Sequence record: NC_019505.1 | Origin: Escherichia phage wV7 | Strand: one strand, 5' to 3' | DNA length: 64,000 nt | Shown here: positions 2-14,192 of the stretch, in pieces | How positions within the stretch are numbered: the first letter of the stretch is position 1 | Layout: every line of letters starts with the position of its first letter | Notes under the pieces: model-generated | Databases searched by the model: none | The model's input: only the letters and a program-made list of their open reading frames with translations | What the model was told of the DNA's origin: nothing | Made by a program: the position numbers and the translations under genes

Positions 2-1546
2 CCTACTGCAAAAATTATTGCTAAAGCTAAAGAAGTTGGCGAATACCCAACATTAGGTTCTAACTGGACTGCAGAAATTTCTTCATCTTCTTCCGGTTTA
101 GCTGCAGTAATAACTCTTGGAAAAATTATTACTGATTCCGGTATTTTATTAGCTGAAATCGAGAGCGCTGAAACTGCTATGACAGCAGTTGATTTTCAGG
201 CAAATCTTGAAAAATATGGAATTCCAGGAGTAGTAGCTCTCTATCCAGGCGAATTAGGCGATAAAATTGAAATTGAAATCGTATCTAAAGCTGACTATGC
301 GAAAGGCGCTTCTGCATTACTGCCAATTTATCCAGGTGGTGGTACTCGTGCATCTACTGCCAAGGCAGTATTTGGATATGGGCCGCAGACTGACTCACAG
401 TACGCTATTATAGTTCGTCGAAATGATGCTATTGTTCAAAGCGTTGTTCTTTCAACTAAGCGTGGTGAAAAAGATATTTACGATAGTAACATCTATATCG
501 ATGACTTTTTCGCAAAAGGTGGTTCAGAATATATTTTTGCAACTGCACAAAACTGGCCAGAAGGATTCTCTGGAATTTTAACTCTTTCTGGTGGATTATC
601 ATCAAATGCTGAAGTAACAGCAGGAGATTTGATGGAAGCTTGGGACTTCTTTGCTGACCGTGAATCCGTTGATGTTCAACTGTTTATTGCGGGTTCTTGT
701 GCCGGTGAATCTTTGGAAACAGCATCTACTGTCCAAAAACACGTCGTTTCAATTGGTGATGCTCGCCAGGATTGCTTAGTATTGTGCTCACCACCGCGTG
801 AAACTGTAGTTGGAATTCCTGTAACCCGTGCTGTTGACAACTTAGTCAATTGGAGAACTGCCGCAGGTTCATATACTGATAATAACTTTAATATTAGTTC
901 AACCTACGCAGCAATTGATGGTAACTACAAATATCAGTATGACAAATATAATGATGTGAATCGTTGGGTTCCATTAGCAGCTGATATTGCTGGTTTATGC
1001 GCAAGAACTGATAACGTATCTCAGACTTGGATGTCACCAGCTGGTTATAATCGTGGCCAGATTCTTAACGTTATTAAACTTGCTATTGAAACTCGCCAGG
1101 CACAACGTGACCGCTTATATCAAGAAGCTATCAACCCAGTAACTGGTACAGGTGGTGATGGTTACGTATTGTATGGTGATAAAACAGCTACTTCTGTTCC
1201 TTCTCCATTTGATCGTATTAACGTTCGTCGTCTGTTTAATATGTTGAAAACGAATATCGGACGTAGTTCAAAATATCGTTTGTTCGAATTAAACAACGCG
1301 TTTACTCGTTCTTCATTCCGTACAGAAACTGCTCAGTACTTGCAAGGAATTAAAGCTCTTGGCGGAATTTATGAATATCGTGTAGTTTGCGATACAACAA
1401 ATAACACTCCGTCAGTAATTGATAGAAATGAATTTGTTGCAACATTCTACATCCAACCGGCGCGCAGTATAAATTATATCCAGCTTAACTTCGTTGCGAC
1501 TGCTACTGGTGCAGATTTCGATGAGTTAACTGGTCTTGCTGGTTAA
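2..1546 (+). CDS. 18: Tail sheath protein gp18, 5'-truncated at window edge (C-terminal ~515 aa)
   Basis: Frame open from window start; translation matches recalled T4 gp18 C-terminal region; followed by gene 19. Confidence 0.9.
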   Translation, partial: PTAKIIAKAKEVGEYPTLGSNWTAEISSSSSGLAAVITLGKIITDSGILLAEIESAETAMTAVDFQANLEKYGIPGVVALYPGELGDKIEIEIVSKADYAKGASALLPIYPGGGTRASTAKAVFGYGPQTDSQYAIIVRRNDAIVQSVVLSTKRGEKDIYDSNIYIDDFFAKGGSEYIFATAQNWPEGFSGILTLSGGLSSNAEVTAGDLMEAWDFFADRESVDVQLFIAGSCAGESLETASTVQKHVVSIGDARQDCLVLCSPPRETVVGIPVTRAVDNLVNWRTAAGSYTDNNFNISSTYAAIDGNYKYQYDKYNDVNRWVPLAADIAGLCARTDNVSQTWMSPAGYNRGQILNVIKLAIETRQAQRDRLYQEAINPVTGTGGDGYVLYGDKTATSVPSPFDRINVRRLFNMLKTNIGRSSKYRLFELNNAFTRSSFRTETAQYLQGIKALGGIYEYRVVCDTTNNTPSVIDRNEFVATFYIQPARSINYIQLNFVATATGADFDELTGLAG

Positions 1547-1562
1547 TACGGTGCATTCTAAA

Positions 1563-1580
1563 GGCCTGTTTCGACAGGCC
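1563..1580 (+). other. Stable stem-loop (GGCCTGT-TTCG-ACAGGCC) between genes 18 and 19
   Basis: 7-bp GC-rich stem with tetraloop directly after gp18 stop; no U-tract, so more likely an RNA stability or processing element than a terminator. Confidence 0.5.
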
Positions 1581-1640
1581 ATATAAATACACTATATCCT
1601 TAATTCTTTAATTCTATATGCCCTAGGTTAAACATAGGGA

Positions 1641-1648
1641 TATAAATA
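1641..1648 (+). promoter_or_regulatory. T4 late promoter box TATAAATA upstream of gene 19
   Basis: Exact TATAAATA 15 nt upstream of gene 19 ATG, followed by AGAGG; a second copy lies at 1582-1589. Confidence 0.55.
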
Positions 1649-1662
1649 CTACAGAGGCTAAT

Positions 1663-2154
1663 ATGTTTGTAGATGATGTAACACGAGCGTTTGAATCTGG
1701 TGATTTTGCGCGACCTAACTTATTCCAAGTAGAGATTTCTTATCTTGGCCAAAATTTTACGTTCCAATGTAAAGCTACTGCTTTACCAGCTGGTATTGTA
1801 GAAAAAATTCCAGTCGGATTTATGAACCGTAAAATTAATGTAGCAGGAGACCGTACATTCGATGATTGGACTGTTACAGTGATGAATGATGAAGCTCATG
1901 ATGCTCGTCAGAAGTTTGTTGATTGGCAAAGCATTGCTGCTGGTCAAGGAAACGAAATTACTGGTGGAAAACCTGCAGAGTATAAAAAGAGCGCTATTGT
2001 TCGTCAATATGCTCGTGATGCTAAAACAGTAACAAAAGAAATTGAAATTAAAGGTCTATGGCCTACTAACGTGGGTGAACTTCAATTAGATTGGGATTCA
2101 AACAATGAAATCCAAACATTTGAAGTAACTCTTGCTCTCGATTATTGGGAATAA
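1663..2154 (+). CDS. 19: Tail tube protein gp19 (163 aa)
   Basis: ATG start with SD; length and sequence match recalled T4 gp19; synteny after gp18. Confidence 0.9.
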   Translation: MFVDDVTRAFESGDFARPNLFQVEISYLGQNFTFQCKATALPAGIVEKIPVGFMNRKINVAGDRTFDDWTVTVMNDEAHDARQKFVDWQSIAAGQGNEITGGKPAEYKKSAIVRQYARDAKTVTKEIEIKGLWPTNVGELQLDWDSNNEIQTFEVTLALDYWE

Positions 2155-2160
2155 AATGAA

Positions 2161-2176
2161 TGGGGAGAAATCCCCA
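2161..2176 (+). other. Stem-loop with GAAA tetraloop after gene 19
   Basis: TGGGGA-GAAA-TCCCCA immediately after gp19 stop. Confidence 0.45.
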
Positions 2177-2186
2177 TCCTGCTTAA

Positions 2187-3811
<1,625 letters not shown>

Positions 3812-9945: not shown

Positions 9946-10224
9946 TCAAAATGTAATTTCTAACCAATCACCATCACGCTGATCACTATTGACTTTAAAA
10001 TTAAATCCTTCTTTTCTCAGCCAATCACCAATTTCTTCAGTAATCAATTTATCACGAGCAGTACAATAATAACTAAAATATGTTTTACCTTGTTCAGCTG
10101 CTTTATTAGCAAGTTCTGAAAAATCTTTAATAAAACACTCTAGCTTAAACTGTTTACTTTTTAATGCTTTTTCACGTAATTGATTAGCAAAAGATTCATT
10201 TTCATAAAGATCATACTGTTCCAT
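9946..10224 (-). CDS. Hypothetical protein (92 aa, 24.2-like position)
   Basis: ATG start; intact ORF in the T4 24.x position; no recognisable motif. Confidence 0.6.
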   Translation of the reverse strand: MEQYDLYENESFANQLREKALKSKQFKLECFIKDFSELANKAAEQGKTYFSYYCTARDKLITEEIGDWLRKEGFNFKVNSDQRDGDWLEITF

Positions 10225-10414
10225 TTTTCACCTTTTTATTAATGTGTCTTTTTCTATAGACAACTTTTTCTCGAGTCTCAAATTTATTCTTTGCAGTCAT
10301 AGCTCGAGCCCATAATACAGCCACTTCTTTCGCCTGTAAGTTTAATTCACGAGCAATTTCAATGAATGACTTTCCAGACTCATGAAGTGTAAACACCACA
10401 ACTTCAGTTCTCAT
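10211..10414 (-). CDS. Hypothetical small protein with helix-turn-helix-like segment (24.3-like position)
   Basis: ORF track starts at 10426; the internal ATG at 10414 has a better upstream purine-rich site. Start uncertain. Confidence 0.5.
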   Translation of the reverse strand: MRTEVVVFTLHESGKSFIEIARELNLQAKEVAVLWARAMTAKNKFETREKVVYRKRHINKKVKNGTV

Positions 10415-10480
10415 AATCAATCTCATGTTATCGAGTTGGTGCCATTATATACATCATTTTCTGATTGTGTTTTGTGTGCT

Positions 10481-10510
10481 TTCAAAATGAAGAAAGGGGC
10501 CGAAGCCCCT
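10481..10510 (-). terminator. Terminator-like hairpin after hoc
   Basis: On the transcribed strand GGGGC-TTCG-GCCCC directly after hoc stop, followed by a U-rich tract. Confidence 0.55.
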
Positions 10511-10515
10511 TTCGA

Positions 10516-11940
10516 TTATGGATAAGTATAGATGATACCAGTTTCTAAAGCAGTTTTATGGATGATGTATCCATTACGTGATTCTTGAACATCAACTTCT
10601 GAATAATCTTTCATCATCTTCTGAAGCGTATAACGATGCAAGTAGTACTTACTATCTGGATCTTCAGTTTTCCAATCTTTACCTTCTTCAGTCATTTTTT
10701 GGATTTCATCCATAACCCACCAACCGCACCAGATATAAGCTGAAGTACGATGTGGAAGAGGATGAACATAAGGCAATTCACCTTCTGGTTCCGGAGCAAC
10801 TTTATCAGTTACCTGAACTTGACCTGTTGTTTTAACTGTTTTACTATCATAGTCGGTTGCTGTAACGACAGCAGTAACTTCAATAGTTTGACTTCCAATA
10901 GATGAGGTGTCAACGGTGTATACGTTAGTTGACCCTTCTACAGGAGAAGAATCTTTCTTCCATGAATAAGTAATTTGTGCTGCTTCAGGTGCTCCAGTAA
11001 CATTAGCCGTAAATGTAGCCGAAGCATCTTGCTGAACGTTAATAGAAGGAGGAGTCAATGTAACCTGTGGATTCATTGTCTTCTTATTAACTGTCAATGA
11101 TACTTCATTAGAAGTAACTTCCTTTTCATTGTAATTTTCTGCAGTTACTTGCGCTACACATTTAATTCTTTTTACTCCACTTGTAGTTGGAGTATAGTTA
11201 AATGTAGAGTTAGTTTCTCCACCAATTTGAGAATCATCTACATACCACTTATATGTAGCAGACGCTCCATCAGGTTGAGAAGCTAAGGCAGCAGTAAATT
11301 GAACTGGAGTTCCAATTACTCCAGCTGAAGGACTATTAGGAGTTACAACTAAAGTAGTCGCTTGGGTTTTCTTGTTAACAGTCAGCGACACTTCGTCAGA
11401 AGTAACGGTCTTTGTATCATAATCTGTCGCAGTTACTTGAGCTACACACTTAATTTTTTTAACTCCGCTTGTGGCAGGAGTATAGTTAAATGTAGCGTCA
11501 GTTGCTTCTCCCACAGGAGAACCGTCGACGTGCCATTGATACGTAGCAGATGCACCTGGCGGCTGTGAATCTAAGGCAGCGGTAAATTGAACAGCTGTTC
11601 CGATTACTCCTTCCGAAGGACTATCAGGAGTTACTGTTATTGTAGTAGTCTGTGTCTTATTTTGAACTGTGATAGTTGTCGTAGCTTCTGCTGTTTCAGG
11701 TTCAGATTCAGATTCTGGAACTGTATTTGTTGCAACGACTTTAATAGTCTTTTGACCGGCAGGTCCTTTTAGTACATAACTAAAAGTTGCTTCAGCTCCA
11801 TCCTGTGGAACATTATCTACACTCCAAGCATAGGTAATAGTTCCACCTTCAGTTTGACCACTGGGTGCAGCAGTAAACTGCTTGGTTTCATCAATAACTC
11901 CTGTTGGGGTTTTAGGAGTTATATCAACTGTAAAAGTCAT
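10516..11940 (-). CDS. hoc: Hoc, head outer capsid decoration protein with four Ig-like domains (474 aa)
   Basis: N-terminus matches recalled T4 Hoc; four repeated ~96-aa Ig-like units then a C-terminal capsid-binding region. Confidence 0.85.
   Translation of the reverse strand: MTFTVDITPKTPTGVIDETKQFTAAPSGQTEGGTITYAWSVDNVPQDGAEATFSYVLKGPAGQKTIKVVATNTVPESESEPETAEATTTITVQNKTQTTTITVTPDSPSEGVIGTAVQFTAALDSQPPGASATYQWHVDGSPVGEATDATFNYTPATSGVKKIKCVAQVTATDYDTKTVTSDEVSLTVNKKTQATTLVVTPNSPSAGVIGTPVQFTAALASQPDGASATYKWYVDDSQIGGETNSTFNYTPTTSGVKRIKCVAQVTAENYNEKEVTSNEVSLTVNKKTMNPQVTLTPPSINVQQDASATFTANVTGAPEAAQITYSWKKDSSPVEGSTNVYTVDTSSIGSQTIEVTAVVTATDYDSKTVKTTGQVQVTDKVAPEPEGELPYVHPLPHRTSAYIWCGWWVMDEIQKMTEEGKDWKTEDPDSKYYLHRYTLQKMMKDYSEVDVQESRNGYIIHKTALETGIIYTYP
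11080..11655 (-). repeat. Tandem direct repeat (2 x ~288 bp) inside hoc encoding Ig-like domains 2 and 3
   Basis: Protein units aa 96-191 and 192-287 are near-identical; the nucleotide units are clearly similar by eye. Confidence 0.75.
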
Positions 11941-11949
11941 AAGTTATCC

Positions 11950-12630
11950 TTATTTTAATGTTACGAAAGAAGAATTGCGTGTTTCACGAATTAGAACTGA
12001 TCCGTCACGATTAATGTAGTAAATTAAGCTAAACAAAGTTTGATGCGCAGACGCATGTTCAAAACTGGTTGGGCGAGATTTCCAATCTGGAGTTTCAGCA
12101 ATCCATTGGTAAATCCACCAAGGAACAGTGCAGAATCCTGGATTTTTTCCAATCAGCTGAAGATTCGGGCTAAAGTTTTCCGGAAGAGTAAATACAGACG
12201 GCTTTTCAGATTCAATAATCTTATCTACAGCTTGTTCAAACTTTTCTTCAACAAAAGGAGTGTCTTCAATCAAAACATCAGTATTTTCAGGAATTTTATC
12301 CGTTTCTACCACTTCAATTTTAATATCAGATTTAACTGGAGAATCAATCAGAAGTGCTGCTTCTGGATTAACTTCTTCATCGTCATATTTTAATCCCTCT
12401 GCAGCATCAGCAGCATCAATTAAGTCTTTAATAGATAACCCATCAGTCTCTGGCATAGGTTCACTAGCGAGCTTCTGGAGGGCTTCTTCAATATCAACAA
12501 CGATATTATCAAAAGATTTATTCTTTTTGACCTTTATACCAAATTGCTCAGCATATTCAGCTAATTTAGCTTTAGCTTCTTTATTATCATCAAGAGCCTT
12601 TAACTCTGCAATATAATCTTTATCTATCAT
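11950..12630 (-). CDS. inh: Inh-like protein, inhibitor of prohead protease (226 aa)
   Basis: Length and position (between hoc and uvsW) match T4 inh; assignment from synteny and length. Confidence 0.65.
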   Translation of the reverse strand: MIDKDYIAELKALDDNKEAKAKLAEYAEQFGIKVKKNKSFDNIVVDIEEALQKLASEPMPETDGLSIKDLIDAADAAEGLKYDDEEVNPEAALLIDSPVKSDIKIEVVETDKIPENTDVLIEDTPFVEEKFEQAVDKIIESEKPSVFTLPENFSPNLQLIGKNPGFCTVPWWIYQWIAETPDWKSRPTSFEHASAHQTLFSLIYYINRDGSVLIRETRNSSFVTLK

Positions 12631-12643
12631 AATATTTCCTCAG

Positions 12644-12651
12644 TATAAATA
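12644..12651 (+). promoter_or_regulatory. T4 late promoter box TATAAATA upstream of uvsW
   Basis: Exact TATAAATA 30 nt upstream of uvsW ATG. Confidence 0.5.
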
Positions 12652-12680
12652 TAGATATATTTATTACATGGTATTTAGAC

Positions 12681-14192
12681 ATGACTGACATTAAAGTACA
12701 TTTTTATGATTTTAGTCACGTGAGAATTGATTGTGAAGAAAGTACATTTCATGAACTCCGTGATTTCTTTAGCTTCGAAGCTGATGGGTATCGTTTTAAT
12801 CCGAAATACAAATATGGCCACTGGGATGGACGAATCCGTCTTTTAGATTATAATCGTCTTCTTCCATTCGGCTTAGTCGGGCAAATTAAAAAGTTCTGTG
12901 ATAACTTTGGCTATAAAGCCTGGATTGACCCACAAATTAACGAAAAAGAAGAATTATCAAGAAAAGATTTTGATGAATGGCTTTCTAAATTAGAAATCTA
13001 TTCAGGAAATAAAAGAATTGAACCACACTGGTATCAAAAAGATGCAGTGTTCGAAGGATTAGTTAATCGTCGTAGAATTCTTAATCTTCCAACATCCGCT
13101 GGTAAATCTTTAATTCAGGCTCTGCTCGCTCGGTATTATTTGGAAAATTACGAAGGTAAAATTCTTATCATTGTTCCAACAACTGCTCTAACAACTCAGA
13201 TGGCTGATGACTTCGTTGACTATCGTTTATTCAGTCATGCAATGATAAAGAAAATTGGTGGCGGAGCATCAAAAGATGATAAATATAAAAATGATGCACC
13301 AGTCGTTGTTGGTACATGGCAAACTGTAGTTAAACAACCAAAAGAATGGTTCTCACAGTTTGGAATGATGATGAATGATGAATGTCATCTTGCTACAGGA
13401 AAAAGTATTTCATCTATCATATCAGGTTTAAATAACTGCATGTTCAAATTTGGTCTATCTGGTTCATTACGTGATGGCAAAGCCAATATCATGCAGTATG
13501 TTGGAATGTTTGGTGAAATATTTAAGCCAGTAACGACTTCTAAGTTAATGGAAGATGGACAAGTAACTGAGCTAAAAATTAATAGTATTTTTCTTCGCTA
13601 TCCCGATGAGTTCACTACTAAATTAAAGGGAAAAACTTATCAAGAAGAAATAAAAATTATTACGGGGCTTAGTAAAAGAAATAAATGGATCGCTAAATTA
13701 GCTATTAAGCTTGCGCAAAAAGATGAAAACGCTTTTGTCATGTTTAAACATGTATCACATGGTAAAGCTATTTTCGATTTAATTAAAAATGAATACGATA
13801 AAGTTTATTACGTATCAGGGGAAGTTGATACCGAAACCCGCAATATAATGAAAACCTTAGCTGAAAATGGTAAAGGAATAATTATAGTAGCTAGTTATGG
13901 TGTATTTTCTACTGGTATTTCAGTTAAAAATCTGCATCACGTTGTTTTAGCGCACGGTGTTAAATCAAAAATCATTGTATTACAAACAATCGGTCGTGTA
14001 TTACGTAAGCATGGTTCTAAGACAATAGCAACAGTCTGGGACCTCATAGATGATTGTGGTGTTAAGCCAAAATCTGCTAATACGAAAAAGAAATATGTTC
14101 ATTTGAACTATCTTTTAAAACACGGCATTGATCGTATTCAGCGCTACGCAGATGAAAAATTTAATTACGTAATGAAAACAGTTAATTTATAA
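12681..14192 (+). CDS. uvsW: UvsW DNA/RNA helicase (503 aa)
   Basis: Walker A-like PTSAGKS, DECH box, SF2 helicase motifs; matches recalled T4 UvsW. Confidence 0.9.
   Translation: MTDIKVHFYDFSHVRIDCEESTFHELRDFFSFEADGYRFNPKYKYGHWDGRIRLLDYNRLLPFGLVGQIKKFCDNFGYKAWIDPQINEKEELSRKDFDEWLSKLEIYSGNKRIEPHWYQKDAVFEGLVNRRRILNLPTSAGKSLIQALLARYYLENYEGKILIIVPTTALTTQMADDFVDYRLFSHAMIKKIGGGASKDDKYKNDAPVVVGTWQTVVKQPKEWFSQFGMMMNDECHLATGKSISSIISGLNNCMFKFGLSGSLRDGKANIMQYVGMFGEIFKPVTTSKLMEDGQVTELKINSIFLRYPDEFTTKLKGKTYQEEIKIITGLSKRNKWIAKLAIKLAQKDENAFVMFKHVSHGKAIFDLIKNEYDKVYYVSGEVDTETRNIMKTLAENGKGIIIVASYGVFSTGISVKNLHHVVLAHGVKSKIIVLQTIGRVLRKHGSKTIATVWDLIDDCGVKPKSANTKKKYVHLNYLLKHGIDRIQRYADEKFNYVMKTVNL

Follow-up and report, generated by a model that had tools for sequence, protein, structure and literature searches.

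The 64,000-nt window analyzed here, taken from the sequence record of Escherichia phage wV7 (NC_019505.1), carries an intact open reading frame of 474 codons, hoc, at 10516–11940 on the minus strand. The surrounding gene order in the late structural region—rnlB, 24.2, 24.3, hoc, inh, and uvsW—is the same in the wV7 window and in T4, as read against the annotations of T4 and of E. coli O157 typing phage 7 (KP869105). Three nucleotides past the hoc stop codon, a consensus scan places an intrinsic-terminator-like hairpin, GAAAGGGGC-TTCG-GCCCCTTTC with a T-rich tail (10492–10513, minus strand), and terminators are annotated at the equivalent place after hoc in fPS-90 and OE5505. The neighboring gene 24.3 homolog (10211–10426, minus strand) has 71 codons when counted from the first possible start codon in the ORF list; 24.3 has 56 codons (171 nt) in T4, and related records annotate 61–71 codons. 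On the other side lie inh (11950–12630, minus strand) and uvsW (12681–14192, plus strand), and the gap between them (12631–12680) holds no gene in the wV7 window. T4 (segE, GIY-YIG) and Shigella phage ESh25 have a homing endonuclease gene at this place; such presence in some phages and absence from others is typical of mobile endonucleases.

On the strength of its sequence, we identify the product of 10516–11940 as Hoc (highly immunogenic outer capsid protein), the outer capsid decoration fiber of Tequatrovirus. Its whole-sequence match to the T4 Hoc chain 5vf3_Z in the PDB has E = 3.5e-216 (best aligned stretch, aa 192–474), and it also matches in sequence the T4 Hoc of capsid cryo-EM entry 8t1x. 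The Hoc-defining features that can be tested here—binding domain, Ig string, and gene position—are all present in wV7. At the DNA level, the gene is 100% identical to ECTP7_01335 of E. coli O157 typing phage 7 (KP869105) and 99.6% identical to AR1 hoc. The deposited names of hoc are frequently vague or wrong: the KP869105 copy is labeled "PKD domain protein," and other records carry "endonuclease," "baseplate wedge subunit" (FP43), "capsid vertex protein" (SP1), "capsid whiskers protein," or "capsid and scaffold protein." Genes labeled "PKD domain protein," "capsid and scaffold protein," "endonuclease," or "baseplate wedge subunit" in this way should be renamed Hoc.

The protein consists of four Ig-like units followed by a C-terminal capsid-binding domain, all encoded on the minus strand. 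Ig-like domain 1 (D1; aa 1–95; 11656–11940) is delimited by a unit-profile hit, the T4 alignment, and a modeled β-sandwich block (pLDDT 78–95). The first middle unit, m1 (aa 96–191; 11368–11655), is where the gap in the T4 alignment lies, carries PKD/Ig Pfam hits, and has an "A"-type central loop (SPVGEATDA). The second, m2 (aa 192–287; 11080–11367), is the T4 domain 2 ortholog, with a PKD hit at aa 197–269 and a "B"-type central loop (SQIGGETNS). The fourth Ig-like domain (D3; aa 288–380; 10801–11079) corresponds to T4 domain 3 by alignment, contains Ig_3/I-set Pfam hits at aa 291–358, and forms a model block with pLDDT 84–94. The capsid-binding domain (aa 381–474; 10519–10800), assigned by alignment to T4 Hoc, is nearly invariant among relatives: it shows three differences from T4 (counterpart T4 residues about 281–376) and a dN of 0.00–0.01 against other hoc alleles, and the T4 alignment finds the conserved ESRNG loop, CGWWV, and PYVHPLPHR (with the WW and YxH residues) all within it. 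With a binding domain so nearly identical, one wV7 Hoc molecule would be expected at each gp23 hexamer center.

The preliminary description had proposed a Hoc of 474 aa with four Ig-like units, and the ORF, a unit profile, Pfam hits, and an AlphaFold2 model agree with it. Scanning with a profile of m1 and m2 yields four unit-like stretches (aa 1–95, 96–191, 192–287, and 288–381), and PKD, Ig_2, Ig_3, and I-set Pfam hits extend across units 2–4. The AlphaFold2 model, computed from an alignment of 121 sequences, contains four β-sandwich domains over aa 1–380 (block pLDDT 78–97, mostly about 90); the best PDB matches of the model in Foldseek are likewise four-Ig chains, namely ICAM-5 D1–D4 and Dscam1 fragments. 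Whole-model TM-scores are low (0.15–0.3) because inter-domain angles differ, and these matches are used solely to indicate four Ig-type domains. The C-terminal domain is poorly modeled (pLDDT 25–55), probably because the alignment is nearly without variation there; its identity is taken from sequence, not from the model.

The two middle units form a direct repeat. A seed-and-extend repeat finder places 288 nt at 288-nt spacing (11078–11365 and 11366–11653), which in protein register becomes 11080–11367 (aa 192–287) and 11368–11655 (aa 96–191), in exact agreement with the interval 11080–11655 and the residue ranges first proposed. The tandem repeat of about 288 nt is also recovered by self-comparison of the protein at an offset of 96 aa; Tandem Repeats Finder left the hoc array of the wV7 window unreported, also with its minimum score set at 30. 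Units m1 and m2 share 217 of 288 bases (75%), against 31% ± 2.6% in codon-shuffled controls (z = 16.8), so an in-frame tandem repeat is evident at the nucleotide level, as had been claimed. The units are not the near-identical copies they had been taken for: only 71 of 96 residues (74%) and 75% of bases are equal. Their longest exact run is 19 nt, CTACATTTAACTATACTCC, located on the minus strand at 11477–11495 in m1 and, from the unit comparison, at 11189–11207 in m2; it is the crossover site of one deletion derivative (L009/P0072; see below).

Assemblers are known to err at tandem repeats, and some related records are draft or "unverified"; a mis-expanded or mis-collapsed repeat, with a true gene of T4 size, is therefore one conceivable explanation of the longer hoc. 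The units, however, being 75% identical and sharing no exact run above 19 nt, are unambiguous at any read length, and the ORF is intact. Hundreds of independent genomes, produced in various laboratories and on various platforms, also show this architecture, and we regard the probability of an assembly artifact as negligible.

Comparison with T4 Hoc (NP_049793; 376 aa) locates the additional unit. The two proteins align end to end with one 94-column gap and a 2-residue gap in the D1 linker, which reads VPESESEPE in wV7 and LSEGGPE in T4. They are about 91% identical over aligned residues, are both acidic (calculated pI 4.66 for wV7 and 4.74 for T4), and have in common D1, D2 (= m2), D3, the nearly invariant capsid-binding domain, and the position between inh and 24.3; wV7 Hoc differs by one extra 96-residue Ig-like module (aa 96–191) between D1 and the D2 ortholog. 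Annotation and alignment thus agree with the preliminary description, in which T4 Hoc has 376 aa and one Ig-like domain fewer. T4 domain 2 shares 86% of its residues with m2, and its dS is ortholog-like to m2 (0.29–0.48) and paralog-like to m1 (0.77–0.89). By this measure, T4 domain 2 is the m2 ortholog and T4 lacks m1; the extra unit in wV7 is a tandem paralog of T4 domain 2. T4 residue numbers accordingly shift by 98 from T4 residue 93 on (domains 2 and 3 and the C-terminal domain). For RB49 Hoc, PDB 3SHS shows the N-terminal domains.

T4 domain 2 is mostly m2-like, but it contains an internal m1-like patch at unit nt 228–258, encoding TATDYDALSV. Conversion between paralogous units could have left this patch, or it could be an ancestral loop state kept in m1 and in some m2 units. 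We rejected the T4 unit as a simple reverse chimera (m2 head plus m1 tail), since the patch lies internally and other four-Ig alleles have this tail type in their m2.

The wV7 architecture is common. In total, 677 phage records match hoc, and in 591 of them a single match extends over at least 80% of the query. Among 60 of the 677 records, sampled at even steps down the ranking, about 20 carry a long hoc (1419–1425 nt, in one piece) and about 31 a hoc of about 1131 nt (T4, RB51, RB33, and RB55 among them); odd sizes in this sample comprise one of 852 nt and one of 1704 nt. Protein lengths fall into corresponding classes: among the top 120 protein clusters, 81 have Hocs of 375–378 aa, 30 of 468/472 aa, and 9 of 567–570 aa, with three, four, and five unit hits per Hoc, respectively. 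The middle module is present once, twice, or three times in Tequatrovirus, giving Hocs of 376/378, 472/474, and 568/570 aa, and wV7 carries it twice. Comparing hoc length across relatives, as the preliminary description had proposed, therefore resolves three length classes with one, two, or three middle units. It also removes the notion that a four-Ig Hoc is unusual or particular to wV7, given that about one-third of the sampled Tequatrovirus records are long and that three-unit forms exist.

The four-Ig Hocs of AR1, PP01, HP3.1, Shigella phage Sf21, Yersinia phage fPS-90, and about 200 further Tequatrovirus records have the identical architecture, with 88–100% nucleotide identity to wV7 hoc; the AR1 and PP01 genes are annotated as hoc/outer capsid protein. 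The wV7/AR1 type has 474 aa and most other four-Ig Hocs have 472, a difference that lies in the D1 linker, and the middle units of these relatives are mosaics of several loop and tail types. Five-Ig Hocs in Tequatrovirus occur in UGKSEcP2 and CCU7. The CCU7 protein (PV806175; locus L004, positions 1501–3204; cluster P0045) has 567 aa; its first middle unit is 85% wV7-like, a unit with which the second and third share only 51% and 36% identity, respectively. Its last Ig domain is also divergent, and its capsid-binding domain is almost unchanged. The additional CCU7 modules look like acquisitions from a more distant hoc rather than products of local duplication. At the short end, the hoc match in Escherichia phage KIT06 (OQ349392, 60219–61070) measures only 852 nt in three pieces, the size of the two-Ig "variant Hoc" of PNJ-9 (283 aa; PMC11853027), which indicates that domain loss outside the middle module also recurs.

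The preliminary description further read the repeat as recent. A recent in-frame tandem duplication specific to the wV7 lineage would fit the layout of the repeat, whose copies stand in strict tandem, precisely in frame, with a unit length of exactly one domain. The divergence of the units stands against it: with 75% of bases and 74% of residues identical, m1 and m2 of wV7 are separated by a dS of 0.96, near 1, and a dN of 0.17. Pairs about equally diverged occur in other four-Ig alleles (dS 0.84 in PP01, 0.73 in HP3.1, and 0.86 in fPS-90), and the array is found in about one-third of Tequatrovirus records. Orthologous units are also far closer than paralogs, as illustrated by the 97% identity between m2 of wV7 and m2 of P0009. 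Nor do the m1–m2 dN/dS of about 0.17 and the ortholog comparisons suggest units that evolve much faster than the rest of hoc; both copies are, from this ratio, under purifying selection. Taken together, these data lead us to reject a recent, lineage-specific origin as highly improbable.

Orthologous hoc segments among wV7, PP01, HP3.1, and fPS-90 differ by a dS of 0.12–0.62. The larger divergence between paralogs than between orthologs places the m1/m2 split before the divergence of these four alleles, in an ordering of units by dS that is blurred by mosaic recombination, frequent among T4-like phages.

Evidence of exchange between the units comes from three-Ig alleles with wV7-type flanks. 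Hocs of 378 aa have the wV7-type 95-residue D1, and 378 equals 474 − 96. In ESh25, OE5505, and L009 (a metagenomic contig that encodes P0072), the flanks are 97–99.5% identical to wV7 at the DNA level, and the one middle unit of each shows a single m1-to-m2 switch over 71 informative sites, with one stray site in ESh25 against an otherwise clean switch. The switch intervals in this set are unit nt 22–30, 55–59, and 161–179, the last of which is the 19-nt identical run (L009/P0072). At the protein level, 378-aa clusters switch at aa 11–15 (P0095 and P0096), at aa 21–29 (P0083 and P0092), and at aa 67–77 (P0070 and P0088, and also P0089 and P0093, which have two additional m2-type sites at aa 29 and 33). 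Across the nine 378-aa proteins, most show a single clean switch and two an extra short patch. The presence of at least six different switch junctions implies at least six independent one-unit deletions from a wV7-type allele.

A related signature extends through the genus. Chimeras with an m1-type loop and an m2-type tail (A-loop/b-tail) make up 14 of 82 three-Ig clusters and, among the clusters typed, are absent from m1 of four-Ig alleles; this chimera is the product that would be expected of deletion within an A–B array. Units were typed by site painting against m1 and m2. Average-linkage clustering of 171 middle units had yielded clusters of mixed positions, because the middle units are mosaics, and was replaced by site painting. 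Only four columns passed a strict m1-versus-m2 diagnostic test across all alleles, which makes genus-wide unit typing coarse.

Unequal homologous recombination between units is thus observed as an outcome: alleles differ by whole units, and chimeras switch at varied positions, as in a copy-number-variable array. On this reading, copy number changes through unequal homologous recombination between the 288-nt units, and the reading frame is kept on gain or loss of a unit because 288 is divisible by 3. The recombination would presumably be performed by the phage's own recombination-dependent replication machinery, as suggested by established T4 biology. Expansion from two to three units is likewise suggested by the length classes.

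The number of tandem Ig-like repeats in bacterial adhesins changes by unequal crossing-over. Adhesins with Big/PKD/BIg repeats offer an analogy, being likewise built on in-frame, domain-length DNA repeats and showing length polymorphism of a surface stalk. The wV7 gene differs from them in encoding a phage capsid decoration protein and in having repeats far more diverged (75% identity) than those of typical rapidly varying adhesins.

One of the deletion derivatives has a further peculiarity. In the one-unit-deleted hoc of Escherichia phage vB_EcoM_OE5505 (MK373785; locus L008, positions 201–1337), the third Ig domain is interrupted by an in-frame TAG (EAA*ITYSW), and the annotation splits the gene into two CDSs. 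This hoc may be a pseudogene or an amber allele carried by a viable phage, which would agree with Hoc being nonessential; otherwise the TAG is a sequencing error.

A different origin of the array would be unequal recombination during co-infection, joining long-diverged A-type and B-type single-unit alleles. Three-Ig clusters with only the A-type loop (about 60) and with only the B-type loop (16–18, including T4) both exist, recombination among T4-like phages is free, and the mosaic makeup of hoc is plain to see, all of which would suit such a joining. The flanking D1 and D3, however, show no matching deep split between alleles (dS 0.14–0.45), and many alleles with one unit can be shown to have arisen from arrays by deletion, so that A-only and B-only alleles need not be ancestral. 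Both histories fit the data; the lack of a deep split in the flanks favors an old duplication within a genome over the joining of alleles, despite heavy mosaicism, and we consider the latter the less likely of the two. The locus is, with high probability, a Tequatrovirus hoc of the O157 typing phage 7/AR1 type, arranged D1-m1-m2-D3-capsid-binding, in which m1 and m2 are old paralogs and the middle module is a cassette whose copy number varies by unequal recombination. On this preferred reading, m1 and m2 would be old tandem paralogs of a 96-residue module that is single in T4 as domain 2, and one history could account for both phages: an old duplication within a genome, then later losses, with T4 among the losers.

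T4 Hoc is a roughly linear four-domain fiber of about 180 Å, and Hoc homologs have 1 to 10 Ig-like domains (PMC10385173). Variable Ig numbers have been described in PNJ-9 (two), Muldoon (ten and two), and PG7 (one) (PMC10385173, PMC11150434, PMC11853027). Those homologs likewise combine a conserved capsid-binding domain with a variable string of Ig-like domains; Tequatrovirus differs in that whole copies of one homologous module vary within one genus, with legible junctions. When scaled from the T4 fiber (PMC10385173), the extra domain would lengthen the wV7 fiber by about 4–4.5 nm, to about 22 nm, and a longer reach from the capsid is a reasonable suggestion for the effect of a four-Ig Hoc.

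A second possible consequence concerns glycan contact. In a two-Ig Hoc, S183, L184, and T185 within segment N180–T185 are reported to be needed for MUC2 binding (PMC11853027). That segment corresponds to NEVSLT, a motif found once in T4 Hoc (aa 180–185); motifs of this type occur twice in wV7 Hoc, as DEVSLT (182–187) and NEVSLT (278–283), so the extra domain may double the putative MUC2-contact motif. In addition, Chin et al. (as cited in PMC11853027) reported that mucin glycan binding is altered by a change at T4 D246. T4 residue 246 is confirmed as D, and the alignment shows it conserved as D344 in wV7 Hoc.

Surface display on T4 and vaccine work use Hoc as their platform, and Hoc is a proposed mediator of phage mucus adherence. 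The four-Ig Hoc of wV7 is an ordinary allele that had been sequenced before; variation in the number of Ig domains of Hoc is published, and the array is biologically an expected kind of variation. We found no paper in open-access text on the middle-module (D2) tandem array or its junctions; the small addition made here is that junctions in hoc legibly record the repeated loss of a domain through recombination. We raise tentatively, as a possibility that we hold to be less probable than its negation, that the middle Ig module is an actively "breathing" cassette, in which phage populations repeatedly gain and lose whole domains through unequal recombination, tuning fiber length and glycan-binding valency to the mucosal or bacterial surfaces encountered, with selection keeping alleles of one to three copies. 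If this were true, the six or more contraction junctions from a wV7-type allele would be the first direct trace of such a cassette. For "T4-like" therapy and typing phages (AR1, PP01, HP3, and the O157 typing phages), the comparison means that Hoc is often one domain longer than that of T4 and that loss of a hoc unit through recombination is possible in isolates.
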